Positions 19,483 to 54,773 of a stretch of 64,000 nucleotides of DNA are shown here, one piece after another. The DNA comes from Biomphalaria glabrata (Eukaryota): assembly GCF_947242115.1 (NCBI RefSeq), contig NC_074716.1, positions 24,112,637 through 24,176,636 of the forward strand, given 5' to 3'. The stretch's first letter is position 1. Every line of letters starts with the position of its first letter. The position numbers and the translations under genes were made by a program. The notes under the pieces were generated by a model. It ran no database searches. It saw only the letters and a list, made by a program, of their open reading frames with translations, and was not told the DNA's origin.

Positions 19483-20618
19483 GGTGACCGGTCATTTCAT
19501 CCCCGGTCACTTCATCCCCAGTCACTTCATTACCGGTCACTTCATCCCCGGTCATTTCATCCCCAATTAAGTATTTTATTTATAAATATGATTATGTAGA
19601 ATGCTTTTTGACATTTTATGACTTGTTACTAATGCGTTTATAGTGTCTCCTCTTCCACTTTGTTTTCTTAATGAGAAATCTTATATTATATTGTAAATCT
19701 GGGTGTCTACTTAACTATGGCGCTTCTATTGGATGTGGGGATTGTAATATCATAATTTTATCCGGATCGAAGGCCAAGGTTTGATGGAAGTAGTAAAAAA
19801 TCATTTGAGAGATAGAAGTGCGATTACAATAATTATGACCGTGCCGCTGATAACTTATCTTCAAAGGCCAAGGTGTGGTGCAAGTAGAGGAAATCTTTTG
19901 AGAGATAGAAATACGATTACAATAATTATAACCATGCCGCTGATAACTTATCATCAAAGGCCAAGGTGTAGTGAAAGTACGACCATGTTTCACTTTATTT
20001 TGTTTTTCAATCGCTCTTTCTTGAAAATGGGCGCGTCATTTTTAGCCCTGAAATAAGGTTTTATTTTTTTCTAATAAAGGCGGAGTTCACCCATCCTCGG
20101 GATATATGTCGCCTGTATAAGTTTTGCTTTAATTCCTTTTAAACATTAACGTGTTAAATTTTGTCATTTATATAAAAAAATGAATATATTAAATATCGCT
20201 CATTTCATGATTTTTTAAATTAAAATTTGGTAGATAAAAATGATCAGATGATGAAAATATCAGGGGATGAAATGACCGGGGATGAAGTGACCAGGGGATG
20301 AAGTGACCAGGGGATGAAGTGACCAGGGGATGAAATGACTGGGGATGAAGTGACCGGGGATGAAGTGACCGGGGATGAAATGACTGGGGATGAAGTGAGC
20401 GGGGATGAAATGACCGGGGATGAAGTGAGCGGGGATGAAATGACTGGGGATGAAGTGACCAGGAGATGAAGTGACCAGGGGATGAAATGACTGGGGATGA
20501 AGTGACCGGGGATGAAGTGACCGGGGATGAAGTGACCGGGGATGAAGTGAGCGGGGATGAAGTGAGCGGGATGAAATGACCGGGGATGAAGTGAGCGGGG
20601 ATGAAATGACCGGGAACC
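19483..20618. mobile_element. Foldback-type non-autonomous DNA transposon, copy 1. Terminal inverted arrays of the 15-mer GGTCACTTCATCCCC / GGGGATGAAGTGACC, internal 120-bp tandem pair, 8-bp TSD TATGAACT.
   Basis: Left end ggtgaccggtcatttcatcccc at 19483. Right end ggggatgaaatgaccgggaacc at 20618. The identical 8-mer tatgaact flanks it at 19475-19482 and 20619-20626. About 24 copies of the 15-mer on the right arm. Confidence 0.75.
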
Positions 20619-21715: not shown

Positions 21716-22218
21716 CTGATTAGGATTATTTAAAAAAAAACAAAGTCAAGATAATGTGTAGATAACATATATCACACTTCATTTTAATACTACTATATAT
21801 GTGTGTGAAACTAAGAATATATATTATAGCTCAAGACATAACAGAAAGTCTAGATAATTATTCATCATATTTGTGCTAATATGTTTATATTGCGTAACTG
21901 TTTGTTGTGGATGTTTTTGTGAGAAAGTACTTAAAAAGGATATGACATACTAAAAGGACAGAGTTCAATGTCTACTTCTATCAACACAAAGTCTCTATTC
22001 ATTCATTGTTATTATTAATGTCTACAGTATTTTATTGATTTCTCTGTGACAACAGAACAATTTTCATCATTTTATTAAATGAACAAAACATTGTCAAAAC
22101 TACCTCAAAACATGGAGCTTCCAGCAATAGGCTTATATTCAGATGTTAGCCAACAGTTTCAAATGTGAAACCATTTCACTAATTCATGATCTATTAAACT
22201 CTCCAACAATTATCTTAC

Positions 22219-22272: not shown

Positions 22273-23342
22273 CTAGTGAGTAAAAAAAATTCAATACTTT
22301 AGGAAAATTCATTACAGTTTTAATTAAAATCAATTAATAAATGCCACTAGAGATTCTACTTATTACCTAACAGAAATAACAGCTGTTTTTCATGGACAAC
22401 TGGTTTTAATGTACAATCAAAATTTAATTTTGTATTTTGTCTGATTTTAATCTTGTTTTTAGTTATCATGTCAAGTAGACCCTACTACATTAACCAGTCA
22501 TTCAGCAGTAAGTCTGTCTTAAACAGCACAGGCAGACTCTCATGGTGAGGGTAAAACCTGTGTAGGGCAATTATCCATCGCCAAAATGCACAACATGGTA
22601 TTTTGACAAAATAGCCACAGTACAACTTGCTATGGTGATGCATACCAAATTCTGGAAAACTAAAACTTATTGAATATAATAAAAGATAACATCACATTTG
22701 ATTATCTTTTATAAGTGCTGTAACAAATCTGGATTATTTCACTAATTCTAGGAAATTCTCTACTAAAAATAAAAACATGTGTTTTGAAATATGGACACAT
22801 ACAATATTGTTTAGGATTGTGCTTCTATGTGGCATGATTTCCATTACTAGTACGCCATTGAATAATTTTCACAAGCAATTAGATAATTATAAAGCAACAT
22901 TAGGTTACTTATTCAATTATTCTCATTTAAAACTTTGGTTATTTTTGTAGTATGCTCCCGTGAATGTTTAAAATATTTAATTGCTTGAAGATGTTCTTTG
23001 CCTTCTTTTGTTATCCAACATATGTATGATAAACTTGATAACTTATTTTATTTGCACTGTTGGGGATGGAGCTATAATCATCAACTTATTTTATTTGCAC
23101 TGTTGGTGATGGAGCTATAATCATCATAATAACTTCAAGTTTTACATTCTCAGAAACATTAATAATAATCTTCACTCCTAAATTAAAAATCTCTCCTCCA
23201 AAGCAAGGTAAACAAAAATTTTCTTTTCAGTCACAAAACAAGCAAAATAATTTTTTTTCCCCCTTTAAACAAAACTTATCTAAGGAAAAGAACTGAAAAA
23301 TAGCTGCAGTATATCTCAATAAGTTCCCTTTTCAGATCTTTA

Positions 23343-23805: not shown

Positions 23806-24799
23806 GGTTCCTGGTCATTTCATCCCCGTCACTTCATCCCTGGTCACTTCATCCCTGGTCATTTCATCCCCTGGTCATTTCATCCCCTGGTCATTTCATC
23901 CCCCAGTCATTTCATCCCCTGTTATTTTCATCATCTGATCATTTTATCTAACGAATAGTAATTGTAAATATCATGAAATGAGCAATATTTAATATATTTA
24001 TTATTTATTTAAATGACAAAAAGTGTAACACACATGATAATAAAATTAAAATTAAATGGCATTAAAAACTATAAAAATTTAACATGTATAAATATAGAAG
24101 TAATGTATACAAGTGTTATCCTGATATTATTAGAAAACAAAATAAAACCTTATTTCAAGGCTAAAAATGATGCGCCCAATTTCAAGAAAGAGCGATTGAA
24201 AAATAAAATTAAGTGAAACATGGTCATACTTTTACCACAGCTTGGCCTTTGATGATAAGTTATCAGCAGCACGGTCATAATTATTCTAATCGCACTTCTA
24301 TCTCTCAAAAGATTTCCACTACTTGCAACACACCTTGGCCTTTGATGATAAGTTATCAGCGGCATGGTCATAATTATTATAATCGCACTTCTATCTCTCA
24401 AATGATTTTCACTACTTCCACTAAAACTTGGCCTTTGATCATTACGTCATGCGCAGAATAATATTTTAATATTACATCCACCACATCCACTAGAAGCCCT
24501 ATAGCTAAGTACACACCTAGATTTACAATATATTATAAGATTTCTCATCAAGAATGCAAAGTGGAAGAGGAAACACTATAAACGCATTAGTAACATGTCA
24601 AAAAATATCAAAAAGCATTCTACATAATCATATTTATATATTAGATAAAATGAGGGCTTAAAGTCAAAGCCATAACAGCACAATTAAACAATGAAAAAAG
24701 AAAAATATTTAATTGGGGATGAAATGACCAGGGGATGAAATGACCAGGGGATGAAGTGACTGGGGAATGAAGTGACTGGGGATGAAATGACCAGTCACC
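23806..24799. mobile_element. Foldback-type element, copy 2 (inverted relative to copy 1), TSD (a)TCCAATAC
   Basis: Termini ggttcctggtcatttcatcccc and ggggatgaaatgaccagtcacc. The internal 120-bp repeats at 24213-24461 are the reverse complement of 19790-20040. Flanked by atccaatac on both sides. Confidence 0.7.
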
Positions 24800-25488: not shown

Positions 25489-26492
25489 CTGGAGAGAAAA
25501 AAAATAAATTTCTTCACAACATTATAAGTTAGTTGATTTTAAAATGCATGAGTTAGCTCAAGTCTATAATTAGTTTGAATAGTTTTTGTGCTGTAAAGCT
25601 AATGGTGGACAGAGGTGATCAACAGGTCTACATAACCTAAACAATTATAACAAAACTGTTGTAAGTATTCTTCTTCTGCATTCTCATGATCATGTTGAAG
25701 GGTTCATAAAACTACTCCAATATTGGAGATGAACTATGCAGGCAGTTCCTCAGAGTTTTCCTATATGGTATGATTTGTCATTACAAGGCACAGCAGTATG
25801 AGACAGCAAATGTTCTAGAATATGAAACTAGGAACAAAAGAAACACATGCTATTGTGGTGTATCACCCAAGGAGGCTGATAATATCTCTAATGCGGAATA
25901 CTTAATGACAAGATACTGTTCGAAATCCCTTAGACAAACATGGAAAATAACCTGATTTGACAATCACTGGGCAGTTATCTGAATGCTCCAACTAGATAAT
26001 GAAGATGATGAAATATGCTAACAAACACTTCAGTGTTTAGAATGTAAAACATGCTTGAATGAATAAGATGTAGAAAAGTCAAGGCAGTTACTGCCTTCAA
26101 GTCAGCTACAAAGTCTCTTAGGTACATCAAAAGCAAGTGGCGCAAGGAAATATCATCCATGTTCATTTCATCACTACATTAGACTATGTTTAGCAACTGA
26201 TTGGTCTAGATTTCCACTTTAACATTTAGATGCAGAACTGCAAGATATTTTTTGCCTAAGTTTAGCTTATATGATTCTCAAATACTGAAAAGTCTAGTTA
26301 AACTTACTAAACAAATAAAGGGAAAAAACACAAGAACTTTTGATTATCTTTATAAGCACTGAAACACATCTGGATTATACATATTTTCTCTCTAAATATT
26401 TATCTATCTCATGGTTTTAAATTATCACCAACAGAGTAGGCAGCAGCATACAAACAAATATAGTGATGGAAAATGATAATAGTAATAATTAC

Positions 26493-27367: not shown

Positions 27368-28567
27368 CTGAAAGTTAAGGATAGAAACAAAAATGTATTC
27401 AAGATGATCATTTTTAAAAATGCATGTGTTAGATCAAGGCAATAATTAGTTTGAATGGTTTTAATGCTAAAGCTAATGGTGGACAGTGATGAGCAGCAGA
27501 TCTAATTACAAGAAAAATTATATGAAAATGTGTTGTTGTAGTCTTTTTCAGCGGCTTTCTCCTTATCATGTTTGAGGGTTATATCTGAGATAAACTACAC
27601 AGTTCTGTCCTGAATGGGCAGCTCTCCATATAGTTGTTCTATATGGTATAATTTATCTCTTCCAAACATGGCACAGCAGAAGTAGACAGCAATTGGTTTA
27701 GAAGAAGAGCATTGGAACTCATGTGGTGTGTTATGAAAGGATGCTGACAATATCTTTAAAGCTGCATACTTTATTCAAAATGATCCAGATACTGTTCCCA
27801 GAAATCCCTTAACACACCAATATTAGGAAAAATTGCCTAATTTGGGAATCACTGTGCACATATCTGAATCTGCCAACTTGATAATGAGAATGAAGAAGTA
27901 GATGAAATATGCTAACAAATACTTCATCGTTTAGAATGTAAACATGCTTGAATAAAATGCAGAAAAGTCAGAGCAGTTACAGCCTTCAAGTCAGCTACAA
28001 AGTGTCTTAGGTACATCATCTTTTTTAATTTTAGAAGCAGAATTGCAAGATATTTTTTGCCTAAGTTTAGCTTATAAGATTCTCAAATAGTGAAAGGTCT
28101 AGTCAAACTTCAGAAACAGAATAAAGGAAAACAACACTGGGACATTTGATTAGCTTTACAAACATTGAAACAACTAGGACATTGAAACAACTAGGACATT
28201 CTGTACTTAAAAACATGTTTTATCTAATATTGACAGCCACAATAAATTGTGCCAATATGTGTCACAATTTCATTTACTAGTAAACCAGTGCCACTTGTAT
28301 AGTAGGTAGCCAATTACATTTTAGTAGACAACATTTTCCTATCACAGCAGAAGATTATAAAAGTCTGTCTTATGGTATGAAATGAGATGTTGTAACACTT
28401 TAGGAATAGTTCACATACCTACCATGACAAAATCTATTTACTATTGCTCTGCTACACAAATCCACATTTTCTCTCTACTCTCAAGATTTAGAATCATTAC
28501 CAACAGAGTAGGCAGCAGCATACAACAACAAAATGTAATGATGGAAAATGAAAAGAGAAATAATTAC

Positions 28568-30657: not shown

Positions 30658-30924
30658 CTTTCTGTTTTTCTGTTTCCTGATCCTCTGCTAATCCACCTCT
30701 AAGCTTAAGCACAAGATGAATACAGTCACCAAAGTTCAAACCACTCTCCCCAATGACAGCATTGTCCTCTAAATTACAACCTTTGTAGATTAATCTCTGT
30801 TGTTCTAGAGGCACCCCTTCTTTTTCAAGGAGGATATGTTTCAGGTCAAGGACAGTCATAGAGTCTGAAGCAGGGCAGCTTACAGATTTGCCAGTTAAAT
30901 TTTTGACAATTAAAAACCTCCCAT
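30658..30924 (-). CDS. Ubiquitin-like domain exon: (D)GRFLIVKNLTGKSVSCPASDSMTVLDLKHILLEKEGVPLEQQRLIYKGCNLEDNAVIGESGLNFGDCIHLVLKLRGG-LAEDQETEKQK
   Basis: About 43% identity to ubiquitin over 76 aa. Conserved VKxLTGK, KEGxPxxQQRLI, LED and HLVLxLRGG motifs. Acceptor accacag|AT, donor AAAG|gtttgt. 267 bp, phase 1 to 1. Confidence 0.75.
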
Positions 30925-31290
30925 CTGTGGTAAAATAAAAAAATATTGATACCCATTTTAGTGATGGAAACATTAAATAATGGCAAATTATTCAAATTTT
31001 CATTCTTTTTTAAACTTGTGCCTTATGTTAGGTTTTAAAAGTTTTATTTTGGTTTCATTTTTAGATCCTTATGTACATACTAGTTAAATGTGAAGCTGAG
31101 TTGCATAAACCACTTGAATCTTGACTCAAGCTAAGTTGTTTTTTCTGAGAAACTAAATGCAGCAGGAAAACCTTCTCCCAGATACCCCTCCTCCCATAGG
31201 TAAAGAGAAGAGATTCACTCAGCATGACAGAAGAGATTGTACTATAGTACATGAAAGATGCACTATACAAAAGTAATTTTTGTTAATTAC

Positions 31291-31437
31291 CATGAACAGG
31301 AAGTGAACTGATAGGCTTCAACCTGTGCTCTACCTCTGGAATCTTCAAAGCTTCAGTCCTCAGCTCATGCAAGTAAGTAATGACTTTAGGATAAACATCA
31401 GCATTCTCAACCACATTAGTGAGTTCATCTACACCAG
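31291..31437 (-). CDS. Exon 29: (A)GVDELTNVVENADVYPKVITYLHELRTEALKIPEVEHRLKPISSLPVH
   Basis: Acceptor tttttttcaag|CT, donor CATG|gtaatt. 147 bp, phase 1 to 1. In frame with exons 28 and 30. Confidence 0.55.
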
Positions 31438-32325
31438 CTTGAAAAAAACAAAATAAAACAATGTCAGCATTTCTAGAACAAAAAACATTTTTATTATAAT
31501 CTATAGAAATTCGTAAAAAAAAAACGGTATTGCAGATATGAGCTTGAAGAGCAGTTTGTGCCATGACTGATATAAAAAAAAAATTAAAACCAATACACAT
31601 AAATTTTCTAAAATAAAACTTTGGTACTTTTAAAAAGGCTAATATGGCATATTTAATCGGTTTGTTTCACTATACTTAATGATACAAGCTGTCAGTAAAA
31701 TAAAACTTTGGTACTTTTCAAAACTTGTATGTGACATATTTAATCTGTTTGTTTCACTATAATAAATAGTACAAGTTGTCATGAAGTCATGTTAAGCTTT
31801 TGGGTACATGTGTGTTGCATATTCTTTTAATTTAAGGACATTCCTTCCATTGCATAATTGTGTGCAAATCTACTCATCATGTTCATTGAAACTATACTAC
31901 ATTTTCATGGTTATTTCATCCAGTCTATTCAATTTGTGTTTTAGATTTGGGAAACTAGAGCTCTTTTATAAGTTTGTTCTTATTGGAAGGCTGCTTGATT
32001 GAGTGATATGTGTTTTGAACTGTTGTCTGATGATCCAGAGTTCAAACCCTGCTCACCCTCATCCCCCAGGTGTAAAGCCTAATAATCTTCATTTCTGAAA
32101 GAACGTTCAAAACTCATAAAACAAAGAAAAAAGTGTTTTTTAAAATCCTACACCTCTATTGTCATGTTATAACCCAATAGCACACATCCTAAGGTGGCTT
32201 AAAAAAACATTTTTTATGTTGTTTTTTTCTTTTCGGAATAAGGTCATTATTATCTGTTAAAAGAAAATTTAAAAGAAAAAAAACATAATTTTGTTAATTT
32301 TAATAATAATATTGAGTATTTTTAC

Positions 32326-32407
32326 CATTGAAGATCTCAACAGCCAAGTCTACAGCTTTACTAGTTTCTGACTGTAAGGTATAGGCTTTCACTAGAAGTT
32401 TAGCATT
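32326..32407 (-). CDS. Exon 28: NAKLLVKAYTLQSETSKAVDLAVEIFN
   Basis: Acceptor ttttcacag|AAT, donor AATG|gtaaaaat. 82 bp, phase 0 to 1. Confidence 0.5.
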
Positions 32408-32453
32408 CTGTGAAAATGAGGCAAATAATGTTTAAAAATACAAAATTGATATT

Positions 32454-33891
32454 CAGTGGCGTAGCTAGGGTATATGATGCCCAGTGCAGCAGCTTCTCGT
32501 GAGGCCCCCCTCCCTCTTAAAAAAACTAAATAAAACAGCGAAATGATTTTTTTTTCGACCTAATGTGTATTTTTTGTTTAAGTAATGCTAATTTGCAAAA
32601 AAAAAACAAAAAACAATTTAACAACAAGAAATATTAAAATAAAGACAATATTTAGAACTGAATCATCTAGACAAAATTTTAAAAATTAAAACTCAATATC
32701 TCAAGCAGGTCCTAGTTTCGGAAGTTCAAATGCTTCTGAAGAAACTGCAACAAACCATTAAAGTCTCTTTCGCTCCAGATGAAATTCATATTTGTCAATG
32801 CCGTCATGAGTTGGGATGGTGACAAACATTTATATTTACCTACCACATCATGATATGTTCATATGTCTTGAACTATCCCGTCCAAGGAAGAATACATTTC
32901 CATCCTAGGCTCTTTCTTGTGTATGTTAATAAAGAATCTTCAAATTTTTCGCCTGACATCTTGTGGTTAACACATCTTTGAGTTTCTGCGCTAATCACCA
33001 AATCTGAGCACATGCATTTTGTAAAGGTAACACTGGCTTCAGCAATGTTCTTCTGACTAGTAGCTAAGAATGTTTTTAATCTTTTCCATTTAAGTGCGCA
33101 GTCTCGAATAGCCAATCTCTTGTTTTTGAAGGTAGACTTACGCATCCTTAATTCAGTTAATACAGGGCCCCAAAACCCAAGGTTGGTGAAACAAATGAAG
33201 ACTGCATAGCAACTAACAATCCGCCTTATTCAGACCTAGTAGAAGAGTTTTCATCTGTTCTAGTCAATGTCTCTAGAGTTTCTATAATTTTTGAAAATGA
33301 ATCCATAACTATCTTAACGACTTCTCCTCTGGCACTCCAGCGCATTTTAACCAAGCACTTAGGGCTAGTTTCAGTTATTTTGTTGATGACATCCTAGTGG
33401 TGTGCTGAAGTGGATACAAAAGCTGTGTAAACGGTCCAGTGTACCGAAAAATGTTACTGAATAGATTTCAGCTTCAGCTCAAATTCCAGCCAAGCTCAGA
33501 GAATGGTTCGAGTAAATAATGAATTAAGATGATGTCAATGAAAGACTACAGAATTTGTATCACCTTGTTATCCATGACAATGTAACCTCAACAATTACAA
33601 AAATTAATCCAGTTTGGTGATGATTTAGAGTCTAAGGCATTTATTTATAAGCTCTAGATCTAAATGAAACCTGCGTACTGAACAATGGAGTAACAAAAAA
33701 AACATTGGAGATTAATTAAGTAAGTGAGTAAATCAATTTCTAGTTAACATTTAAAATTCAGTACTTTGTCTTTGTTCATGTATGTAAAATGCATTTATTT
33801 TATTGAGAAAATTGATCCTTAGTTTGATGCCCCAAACCATGTGATGCCCCATGCGGCCAGCACCACTTGCACATGGCTAGCTATGCCACTG
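32454..33891. mobile_element. hAT-like non-autonomous element (TIR CAGTGGCGTAGCTAGG..., perfect 8-bp TSD TTGATATT) in the PARP4 intron between exons 28 and 27
   Basis: Left end cagtggcgtagctagggtatatg. Right end catggctagctatgccactg is the reverse complement. ttgatatt lies directly outside both ends (32446-32453 and 33892-33899). TIR fits the hAT YARNG rule (CAGTG). Confidence 0.75.
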
Positions 33892-34806
33892 TTGATATTA
33901 CTGTTCTGTGAATAAAATGCAAGATCAAAAGATTCATGTCCATGAATAAACTAGAGTTCATTTAAATCTCATTTTAAAATCCAACTTACTTAATGTATGC
34001 TCAAATAGCTTTGAATTCTGTTTTGTTTTGTTGAGCATTTTGTTGCCTCAATTGTAGGTGAAAATATATTTCTGCTTTCTCTTTTTCTAGTAGTCATGGA
34101 TAACTCTTTTTAACAGATATACATAACCCATAATAGCACAGATCCCTCAAACTCATTATTCATTCATGTATCTTCAATCGCTAAACCCTGCTCCAAGTTT
34201 CTTATTCTTCTTCATCTAACCAGCATTTTACTGGCAGTAAGCCCTTTGCAAAGTAGCATGCTGTTATTCTCTGCTGTCCCACATTGCCATATAATCTTTT
34301 GAAACTTTTTCTATACACTAAACTATACAACTGCTTAACTTCAATGACATAGCCCTGTAACTTCCAGGATACAAGGACCTTAAAAGCTAGGCAATAAGTT
34401 GTGATTTAGTTCTTTGGGATTAGGGTTAGTTAAGGTGCTGGATAACAGAAACTTTTTCTTATGTTCATAAACAGCCTCACTGACCAATAAATATTTTGAA
34501 CTTAATATCAATAGAATTAGTTTTGATTAGTAGGCAGCTGCCTAAGTCATGTGATGCTATTTCCAGATTGCCATTTTGATGGTCCCAGGTTTGAACTCTT
34601 CCCACTGTTATTCTGCCGGAGGTTTGGGCTAGGACGTAATAACCTTGATTTCTGATTGTTTTTAACCCAAGAAAGATTCATAGTATTTACAACAAATGTC
34701 CAATAAGGATAACTAAATCAGTCTTAGTCTTAGAAACTTACAGGTAAAGTCAAATCTAGTTGTTACTCTTACAAAAAAATGAATATCTGACTGTGGAAAC
34801 GAATAC

Positions 34807-34968
34807 CTGAATGACATCCTTGTTGCAGGCTCCTGTTTTTTCTTTCATCATTTCCAGCTTCTCTTCCATTGCTTCCAGTTGACTGATTGTCTTATTGGAC
34901 AGAGACCCATTGTTAATGTCTTCCCCAAGCTGCTGTAGCATCAGTTCCAGAGAAAGATCATCTCCAGT
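34807..34968 (-). CDS. Exon 27 (species-specific insert region): TGDDLSLELMLQQLGEDINNGSLSNKTISQLEAMEEKLEMMKEKTGACNKDVIQ
   Basis: Acceptor cacttcag|ACT gives phase 0, matching exon 26. Donor CAG|gtattc. An alternative acceptor 22 nt upstream would be out of phase. 162 bp. Confidence 0.5.
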
Positions 34969-54650: not shown

Positions 54651-54773
54651 TGTAACAATAAAACTGATGATGCCTCCATTTTCAACAATCTTCTTACGCA
54701 TCTCTAATTTTTTCTTAAAGCCTAGATTGTAACCAAAATCAGCAGCTATTTGAATTCCTTTGAATATAGCCAT
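54645..54773 (-). CDS. PARP4: PARP4-like exon 1 (start codon, BRCT N-term): MAIFKGIQIAADFGYNLGFKKKLEMRKKIVENGGIISFIVTKK
   Basis: ATG in good Kozak context (acaaaaATGG). Aligns to human PARP4 N-terminus (...KKKLQTDIKENGGKFSFSL). Donor AAG|gtaattcac. Phase 0 end. Confidence 0.7.

Follow-up and report, generated by a model that had tools for sequence, protein, structure and literature searches.

The vault particle contains a single enzyme, PARP4, and neither is understood in function. Citarelli et al. (2010) list the vault PARP clade with BRCT, PARP, VIT and vWA domains only. Perina et al. (2014; PMC4245714, section 3.1.2) described PARP4-like proteins with appended 14-3-3 domains (in amoebae, Branchiostoma, sea urchin and Capsaspora) and actin domains, as well as ubiquitin-related domains in the clade-5 PARPs of Acanthamoeba. 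A 2023 domain re-annotation of human PARPs found the PARP4 linker from the ITIH-like region to the C-terminal, vault-docking MVP-interaction domain (MVP-ID) to be disordered; in primates this linker is reportedly positively selected, and it was suggested to be a site of interaction with viral factors and of cleavage or modification by viruses (PMC10450202). Our literature searches found no paper describing a ubiquitin domain in an animal PARP4. Here we analyse a 64,000-nucleotide stretch of the Biomphalaria glabrata genome (contig NC_074716.1, positions 24,112,637 to 24,176,636; hereafter the window, with positions counted from its first letter), in which the interval 34968-30658 comprises exons 27-30 of an intact heterobranch-snail PARP4 (vault PARP) gene, the last of them encoding a ubiquitin-like (Ubl) domain that ends in LRGG.

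An intact PARP4 gene with a ubiquitin-family exon

One long gene on the minus strand fills nearly the whole window, whose G+C content is about 32-35%. The closest available relative is the PARP4 of the planorbid snail Bulinus truncatus (KAH9525129.1; 74% identity at 99% coverage), which served as the guide for refining the splice junctions, with exon-by-exon tblastn using the Bulinus protein (P0002). The refined model has 30 exons on the minus strand, running from the ATG at 54773 to 30658, and encodes 1449 residues without a single stop codon; all 29 junctions are GT-AG. In the assembled protein, Pfam identifies BRCT (residues 4-81), PARP_reg (303-387), PARP (409-584), VIT (642-753) and VWA (888-1040) domains and, C-terminal to the latter, a ubiquitin domain (PF00240, 1366-1436). 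The succession of BRCT, PARP catalytic, VIT and vWA domains is that of PARP4, and the best protein matches are all PARP4. The catalytic H-Y-E motifs can be read by eye in 'LLFHSSK', 'GIYFASD' and 'HDEYVVY', which we take to be the counterparts of 'LWHGSR', 'GIYFAD' and 'YNEYIVY' in PARP1; activity is only predicted. At about 99.3% identity to the window DNA, a Logan contig from run SRR16036442 can be assigned to the same species. The exons of the model are as follows.

54773-35828, minus strand: PARP4 exons 1-26, encoding the BRCT, PARP regulatory and catalytic, VIT and vWA domains and the rest of the ITIH-like core, ending '...DILPYMGWTKGL'
34968-34807, minus strand: exon 27, 162 nt, phase 0-0, first part of a diverged 14-3-3-like helical module
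32407-32326, minus strand: exon 28, 82 nt, phase 0-1, middle of the 14-3-3-like module
31437-31291, minus strand: exon 29, 147 nt, phase 1-1, end of the 14-3-3-like module and a linker, '...LKPISSLPVH'
30924-30658, minus strand: exon 30, 267 nt, phase 1-1, ubiquitin-derived domain followed by 15 residues, 'LAEDQETEKQK'

The exon numbers 27-30 and the intron phases given in the original prediction agree with this model. The last core exon (35926-35828) and the four exons of the interval all have AG and GT borders on the minus strand, carry phases of 0-0, 0-0, 0-1, 1-1 and 1-1, respectively, and join into one open frame of 252 residues. The Ubl domain lies, as had been claimed, in frame within a PARP4 ortholog; the model is free of stops, and PARP4-homologous exons are found on either side. 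The prediction went wrong in taking '...DILPYMGWTKGL' for the last conserved PARP4 exon: a conserved C-terminal MVP-ID is encoded further downstream, at 12556-12457 and 10994-10672.

These features also bear on whether the exons of the interval might lie outside the PARP4 mRNA, either as an independent nested gene or through an artefact of annotation or reading. The exon chain of the window was derived from genomic DNA, and in a prokaryote-style gene call on the Logan genomic contig the exon appears as an open reading frame (ORF) of its own. Against this, every phase and GT-AG site fits the 30-exon, stop-free model, Bulinus has an identical exon order, at least ten independent gene models (four of them in RefSeq) join the Ubl to PARP4, and PARP4-homologous exons flank the interval on both sides. 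We find this explanation scarcely credible, and a nested gene was rejected on the phases, the splice sites, the models from other species and the PARP4-homologous flanks. The earlier claim of one transcript is supported by the flanking exons and by other species' models; for this window itself it is deduced from splice logic and genomic DNA.

Exon 30 encodes a ubiquitin fold at 30919-30692, with the LRGG at 30703-30692, so that the domain ends in KLRGG and is followed by Leu. PF00240 scores 58.1 bits (E 7e-16) on the exon alone and 54.1 bits in the assembled protein, far above the gathering cut-off of 25.4 bits. The domain aligns with ubiquitin without gaps across all 76 positions at 39% identity (30/76), rather than the 43% given originally; the motifs VKxLTGK, KEGxPxxQQRLI, LED and HLVLxLRGG named in that account are all found. 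The ubiquitin residues K6, L8, K11, K27, K33, Q40, R42, I44, H68, V70, L73, R74, G75 and G76 are kept, and the changes include K29I, K48C, K63F and R72K. An AlphaFold model of the domain superimposes on ubiquitin with a root mean square deviation of 0.7-1.6 Å over about 75 residues and a template modelling (TM) score of 0.93 normalised to ubiquitin, which places the predicted structure in the beta-grasp fold; the tail after the GG is predicted to be disordered, with a predicted local distance difference test (pLDDT) score below 50. With 39% identity and a start near residue 1360, the domain falls outside ubiquitin proper and its fusion precursors.

In the Bulinus locus (L002) the counterpart of exon 30 is likewise a single exon of identical phase, but reads 'LRGGGGK' and then directly TAA TAA TAG. 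Between the two species, the proportion of non-synonymous differences (pN) in exon 30 is 0.26 and that of synonymous differences (pS) 0.73, with synonymous sites saturated, compared with a pN of 0.09 in the core exons. Exon 30 is therefore fast-evolving yet under clear purifying selection, as its pN is far below its pS. Because its phase is 1-1, skipping or including it preserves the reading frame.

The helical stretch of about 130 residues preceding the Ubl, which had been counted as part of the insertion, turns out to have relatives in other PARP4 proteins. After the '...DILxYMGW' motif, lancelets, hemichordates, a brittle star, a coral and the snail Gigantopelta have a segment that is unmistakably the C-terminal half of 14-3-3 (for example 'AAFDAVAELDTLSEESY' in Gigantopelta). 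We compared a profile of the heterobranch segments, including that of the window (A1), with a profile of clear 14-3-3-like PARP4 segments from other invertebrates (A2). A2 matched 14-3-3 chains in the PDB with E values of about 1e-32, covering 14-3-3 residues ~136-236, and A1 aligned with A2 in hhalign with a probability of 95.8% and an E value of 7e-9 over 105 columns. A1 on its own found kinesin light chain tetratricopeptide repeats best in the PDB (1.5e-5) and 14-3-3 at just 0.04-0.4, and PF00244 from Pfam gave no match to the window segment at E values up to 1. The homology of the window segment to 14-3-3 is thus that of a profile-profile chain, running from A1 through A2 to the PDB. AlphaFold predicts five helices at residues 19-123 with a pLDDT of about 80; in fold searches with the two-domain model the matches were mostly to ubiquitin, and the helical part drew no separate signal. 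Only the C-terminal ~100 residues of 14-3-3 are represented, rather than the complete nine-helix domain. Judged from these profiles, exons 27-29 encode a diverged C-terminal half of 14-3-3, an old accessory module of invertebrate PARP4. In the 2.4-kb intron between exons 27 and 28, at 33393-32876 (minus strand), ORFs of 55 and 118 residues have the look of a transposon remnant.

Spread of the ubiquitin module and the junction after LRGG

PF00240 occurs together with BRCT, PARP, VIT and vWA in one gene model in Bulinus, Plakobranchus, Elysia, Batillaria (two models) and Nucella, as well as in Aplysia (XP_012936925.2), Littorina (XP_070191086.1), Gigantopelta (XP_041352467-9) and the clam Mercenaria (XP_053398285.1). 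Counted by species, at least 10 molluscs have such a model. The order core, 14-3-3-like module, ubiquitin is found in gastropods of four major groups and in Mercenaria. Neither PF00240 nor PF00244 was found in any of ~80 vertebrate PARP4 hits, and PF00240 was absent from PARP4 models of oyster, mussel, scallop, chiton, annelids, echinoderms and cnidarians. No ubiquitin exon was found in the Lottia interval between the PARP4 core and the MVP-ID, and the 10 kb that follow the Haliotis model were found to contain no Ubl, 14-3-3-like or MVP-ID exon. The statement that known PARP4 proteins have no Ubl therefore holds for vertebrate PARP4 and for the papers searched, whereas RefSeq and GenBank entries from molluscs already carry PF00240. 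Nor is the architecture wholly new: it has been sitting unremarked in mollusc gene models, and accessory modules on PARP4-like proteins were reported in 2014. The novelty lies in a true ubiquitin-family cassette of an animal PARP4 with its LRGG tail conserved, together with the pattern described below, in which Pro after the GG and sequence divergence alternate at the junction.

The origin of the module can be approached through its gene structure. In Mercenaria (locus L003: 59337-59447, 60330-60512 and 60897-61061) the ubiquitin module extends over two exons with the GG at an exon end. In the heterobranchs (the window, Bulinus and Aplysia) a single exon holds it and extends beyond the GG. A proof of single origin by conserved intron positions was rejected for this reason, and a single origin is suggested by shared substitutions only (of the E24A/N25D type, and Pro after the GG). 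Of the three RefSeq isoforms in Gigantopelta, X1 and X2 include the ubiquitin module and X3 equals X2 minus exactly the module (102 residues), so that there it is modelled as an in-frame cassette.

Such a cassette could be an exonised ubiquitin copy with no specific function, tolerated because it lies in a disordered linker and would often be skipped. The symmetric phase of the exon, the Gigantopelta isoform that skips it, its absence from the Lottia interval and from many bivalve models, and a non-synonymous divergence about three times that of the core would all suit this explanation. However, the module has been kept across deep gastropod splits and in a bivalve, its pN is far under its pS, the RLRGG and the residues of the I44 patch are conserved, and the reading frame is intact in all species examined. 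We regard a copy free of function as improbable.

The junction was compared across 11 Ubl copies or lineages, the window included. RLRGG (KLRGG in the window) is kept in nine of the 11 lineages, even where identity to ubiquitin has fallen to 36-45%, which indicates that the tail is under selection. All four copies with 59-75% identity to ubiquitin (Littorina, Nucella, Gigantopelta and Mercenaria) have Pro after the GG. Gly follows the GG in Bulinus, Aplysia, Plakobranchus and Elysia and Leu in the window, and these two residues are restricted to heterobranch copies, which are 36-45% identical to ubiquitin. The GG has been lost in Batillaria (RGA) and in the model P0122 (RCG), and both retain the domain. 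K63 is lost in all 11 copies and K29 in ten (Gigantopelta keeps it), and K48 in the window, Bulinus and Aplysia. Junctions between ubiquitin and Pro are established as poor substrates for deubiquitinases, as reported by Bachmair, Finley and Varshavsky (1986) and Johnson et al. (1992, 1995).

The simplest reading of this comparison would be that the ancestral module was an uncleaved ubiquitin in cis. We tentatively favour, at close to an even chance but short of it, the view that the Ubl is an optional and normally uncleaved 'built-in mono-ubiquitin', a docking module on the tether between the core and the vault anchor. Alternative splicing would include or omit the ubiquitin module; when included, it would hang on a flexible tether between the enzymatic/ITIH-like core and the MVP-ID, where its I44 patch and LRGG tail could be read by ubiquitin-binding or deubiquitinase-type proteins, and the reading of the Ubl would link PARP4 and the vault to partners in the ubiquitin system. 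The junction would be shielded from general deubiquitinases either by the Pro after the GG, in the ubiquitin-like copies, or by strong divergence of the surface, in the heterobranchs. A docking module is favoured because it fits both the correlation of ubiquitin-likeness with Pro and the survival of the domain without a GG.

A processed junction, at which a deubiquitinase or Ubl protease cuts after the LRGG, was already raised in the original prediction and is the main alternative. The cut might split the enzyme part from the vault-docking tail, or it might trim the propeptide of a short isoform and leave a free, conjugatable -LRGG. Two features of the window immediately downstream of exon 30 are relevant to the second variant.

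30657-30586, minus strand: candidate intron, 72 nt, GT...AG, with a strong pyrimidine tract, putatively used
up to 30555 (segment 30657-30555), minus strand: possible alternative terminal coding piece, 'EDKFSEDFGS*', with a predicted stop at 30557-30555

Splicing through 30657-30586 would give a candidate short isoform that ends 25 residues past the GG. The Logan contig of the same species has four extra bases within 30657-30586, an indel that fits non-coding sequence. The Bulinus ending resembles the precursors of NEDD8 and ISG15. Besides this possible short ending in the window, processing would be consistent with the retention of RLRGG in nine of 11 lineages despite the 36-45% identity of the heterobranch copies to ubiquitin, with Gly or Leu after the GG in heterobranchs, with the Bulinus 'LRGGGGK' and its three stop codons, with the end of the Plakobranchus model in 'LRGGGEIT', and with the predicted disorder (pLDDT <50) of the tail after the GG. 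In contrast, Pro follows the GG in precisely those four copies that general deubiquitinases would be likeliest to recognise, two lineages without a GG keep the domain, and a constitutive cut would uncouple the enzyme from the MVP-ID of the same reading chain. We judge processing in heterobranchs rather unlikely overall. Constitutive cleavage of the ancestral form is disfavoured because of the Pro after the GG in four copies and the loss of the GG in two, and the same two observations argue against an ancestral modifier-type role, in which an exposed GG would be activated by an E1.

The docking module has difficulties of its own. It does not fully explain the strong conservation of RLRGG, whose near invariance in very diverged copies (9/11) is unusual for integral Ubl domains and more typical of processed precursors. 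The Leu after the GG in the window is in principle cleavable, and both the stops after the Bulinus 'LRGGGGK' and the possible 25-residue ending in the window resemble the tails of Ubl precursors. The Ubl may also end a shorter product, the MVP-ID part being annotated separately in five genera. Finally, the inclusion of exon 30 and its downstream link follow from splice logic and from the gene models of other species, and the docking partner is hypothetical.

The tether downstream and the vault anchor

Downstream of exon 30, on the same strand, a chain of exons can be followed to the MVP-ID.

28657-28598, minus strand: acidic cassette exon, copy 1, 60 nt, phase 1-1, 'DEVEVDTDEFGEDCFLKGSF', its use suggested by splice sites and phase
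26582-26523, minus strand: acidic cassette exon, copy 2, 60 nt, phase 1-1, putative
24872-24813, minus strand: acidic cassette exon, copy 3, 60 nt, phase 1-1, donor GTATGT, putative
22272-22219, minus strand: candidate K/R-rich exon, 54 nt, phase 1-1, 'AMKKRMSRRPRYSRRGGS'
21715-21611, minus strand: candidate acidic exon, 105 nt, phase 1-1, 'GDMDMGSQLLISEEAIERADQERESQKSSFTRSLL'
18535-16965, minus strand: Ser/Pro-rich linker exon, 1571 nt, phase 1-0, disordered, FG-like and with poly-Pro, open frame
12556-12457, minus strand: first MVP-ID exon, phase 0-1, 'DGSWQFGMTLDQLLGINSGQCQHILIQSGLKSLG'
10994-10672, minus strand: last coding exon, rest of the MVP-ID, stop TGA at 10674-10672

Exons 26-30 joined to this chain give 1029 codons free of stops, with canonical splice sites and compatible phases. 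Over their whole length, the last two exons align with the ~115 C-terminal residues of vertebrate PARP4, and an exhaustive HMMER search with the C-terminal 254 residues matched 20 proteins with E values down to 1.7e-18. Among them are a full-length, 2363-residue PARP4 of the mussel Potamilus and a Branchiostoma PARP4 fragment carrying both the 14-3-3 piece and the MVP-ID; one match (P0125) bears PF26156 (PARP4_MVP-ID), and another (P0130) is named 'PARP4 MVP-ID C-terminal domain-containing protein' in UniProt. Pfam gave no match on the downstream ORFs, and the same Pfam set gave no MVP-ID for shark and jellyfish PARP4 either. By this homology, the strand that carries exon 30 also encodes a canonical MVP-ID 18-20 kb downstream, putatively in a shared mRNA.

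Other species help to place the intervening part. The same kind of Ser/Pro-type linker stands directly upstream of the MVP-ID in relatives (P0122, P0128, P0140 and L006), and the UniParc model P0122 holds Ubl, Ser/Pro linker and MVP-ID in one protein. The Logan transcript contig L006, whose 5' end is open, does not extend as far as the Ubl region. When the 31 kb downstream in the window were compared by tblastx with 10 kb downstream of the Bulinus gene, only the Ubl exon matched. In Aplysia, Plakobranchus, Elysia, Littorina and Pinctada the annotation makes the Ser/Pro and MVP-ID part a gene of its own, on the same contig and misnamed POM121, Rpb1 or SRRM1-like (in Aplysia, Plakobranchus and Elysia) or called "uncharacterized"; the Aplysia locus is riddled with assembly gaps. 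The names POM121, RNA polymerase II Rpb1 and SRRM1-like look like low-complexity misannotations of the C-terminal half of PARP4. Mollusc annotations would thus split PARP4 into two adjacent genes, one with the core and the Ubl or actin module, the other with the Ser/Pro linker and the MVP-ID. In Lottia an unannotated MVP-ID exon lies at 28194-28511 of locus L005, ~8 kb downstream of a truncated model and on the same strand.

Several smaller observations concern the DNA of this region. The three 60-nt acidic exons sit in tandem duplicated units of ~2 kb that have flanking intron sequence in common, and a fourth look-alike near 26178 (minus strand) meets a stop in its phase-1 reading. The Ser/Pro-rich exon contains the FG-like repeats 'VFGFGAG', 'SFGTG' and 'NLFGS'. 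In the intron between the Ser/Pro and MVP-ID exons, an RNase H-like motif ('...HCGIRGNERADSLAKLG...', 13592-12764, minus strand) was seen by eye and is probably a retrotransposon remnant. A minisatellite of 15-16 nt (GGGGATGAAGTGACC and variants, up to 23 copies) is scattered in the introns downstream of the Ubl exon (20263-20614, 19488-19564, 23810-23948 and 24715-24794) and gives rise to long, spurious ORFs in every frame.

Further pieces or mimics of abundant, conserved proteins occur in the PARP4 tethers of other invertebrates. An N-terminal actin piece of ~60 residues ('VMDMGSLFMKAGFAGDDAPRAEF..VGRPRHQGVMVGMGQKD', or '...MKAGFAGDDAPRAEF..VGRPRHQGVMVGMGQKD') occurs in oysters, mussels, Pinctada, a brittle star, an acorn worm and a jellyfish (P0018, P0026, P0028, P0014, P0027, P0025 and P0035). 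It follows a 'FTSF[IV]AVEKR...YMGWE' motif and sits roughly where gastropods have ubiquitin; for Rhopilema, the actin family PF00022 scores E 7e-11 over profile residues 5-65. A stretch nearly identical to the C-terminal tail of the ribosomal P-stalk, 'EESDEEMGFxLFD', is found repeatedly behind the Ubl or actin module of mollusc tethers, namely in Aplysia (twice), Elysia, Batillaria, Nucella, Gigantopelta, Mercenaria, P0122, Littorina, Pinctada, Magallana and Lottia (P0003, P0011, P0006, P0008, P0009, P0012, P0122, P0140, P0130 and P0028, and about position 22100 of the Lottia locus L005). The motifs of Aplysia, Elysia and P0122 beat all 2000 shuffles, and PF00428 is precomputed for Aplysia. 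Mimics of the histone H3 tail are found in Littorina ('RTNQTARMSTGGKAPAR', P0007/P0146), in Batillaria ('SRTRQTARRSTGGRAPR', P0006) and at about 22400-22650 of the Lottia locus ('RTTQSARFSTGGKA' and 'GVKKPHRYRPG'), and none of 2000 shuffles reached the observed scores in these three genera. A copy of the Hsp70 substrate-binding domain (PF00012, E 2e-35) stands just upstream of the MVP-ID in the pteriomorph bivalves Pinctada (P0130, residues 403-544) and Magallana (P0028), and one Pinctada model (P0014) contains a whole calmodulin, possibly by fusion with a neighbouring gene. P-stalk-like and H3-like stretches in the window itself (17201-17157, 21715, 22272 and 28657) scored no better than shuffles and were rejected.

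It is tempting to see in these modules an integrated bait or decoy, in which the tether would carry copies or mimics of conserved host proteins that pathogen toxins and effectors target: ubiquitin, the 14-3-3 half, the actin N-terminal piece, the P-stalk tail, the histone H3 tail, the Hsp70 substrate-binding domain and calmodulin. A Ubl with an intact LRGG would then trap or report ubiquitin-acting enzymes of pathogens at the vault, beside an ADP-ribosyltransferase. A lineage-specific mix of modules (actin, 14-3-3, P-stalk, H3 and Hsp70) at one position speaks for this, as does the positive selection on the primate linker with its suggested viral-factor interaction (PMC10450202). On the other side, the argument is one of pattern, some modules may be gene-model fusions (the Pinctada calmodulin), folding is doubtful for fragments such as actin 1-65 or half a 14-3-3, and highly expressed genes, being the commonest source of retrocopies, could yield the same list with no function at all. 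We treat the bait as a long shot.

A conserved and alternatively included LRGG module between the enzyme and the vault anchor would be a concrete handle on PARP4. It would predict partners from the ubiquitin system (ubiquitin-binding domains, deubiquitinases) or a regulated release from the vault. The pieces of abundant conserved proteins in the tethers may in addition hint at interactors of PARP4 or the vault; the literature that we found noted only 14-3-3 and actin.

Comparison with known systems

Vertebrate PARP4 has the same order of BRCT, PARP regulatory and catalytic, VIT and vWA domains, the same H-Y-E motifs, a long linker and a C-terminal MVP-ID. Unlike the gene in the window, its linker carries neither a 14-3-3-like nor a ubiquitin module. 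The PARP4-like proteins of Perina et al. (2014; PMC4245714) likewise bear accessory modules after VIT and vWA, and their 14-3-3 is homologous to exons 27-29; that study reports no ubiquitin domain in an animal PARP4 and no mollusc case, and the window adds a ubiquitin-family domain with LRGG after the 14-3-3-like part.

Ubiquitin fusion precursors (polyubiquitin, UBA52, RPS27A and FAU/FUBI-S30) share with exon 30 a domain that ends in RGG and continues in frame into another polypeptide. In these precursors, however, ubiquitin is N-terminal or arranged head to tail, nearly identical in sequence (FUBI excepted) and cleaved off, whereas the Ubl in the window begins ~1360 residues into the protein with 39% identity, and Pro follows the most ubiquitin-like PARP4 copies, which disfavours cleavage. 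Integral UBL proteins such as OASL, with an enzyme fold and a C-terminal tandem Ubl, usually lack the RLRGG tail that is conserved here, and only the fold is held in common.

Among ADP-ribosyltransferases, the Tetrahymena locus that combines an arginine ADP-ribosyltransferase with polyubiquitin-like sequence (PDB 5n9v) belongs to another family, arginine-specific and not a PARP, in a ciliate and with multiple Ubls. The ADP-ribosylation of ubiquitin by PARP9/DTX3L and by SidE-type enzymes offers a conceptual link through the G76 carboxylate and R42, both kept in the Ubl of the window. Those are trans-acting pairs of enzyme and substrate, whereas modification by PARP4 of its own Ubl is hypothetical. 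By analogy, the integrated decoys of plant nucleotide-binding leucine-rich repeat (NLR) receptors might provide a precedent for a vault-bound ADP-ribosyltransferase that captures or senses effectors.

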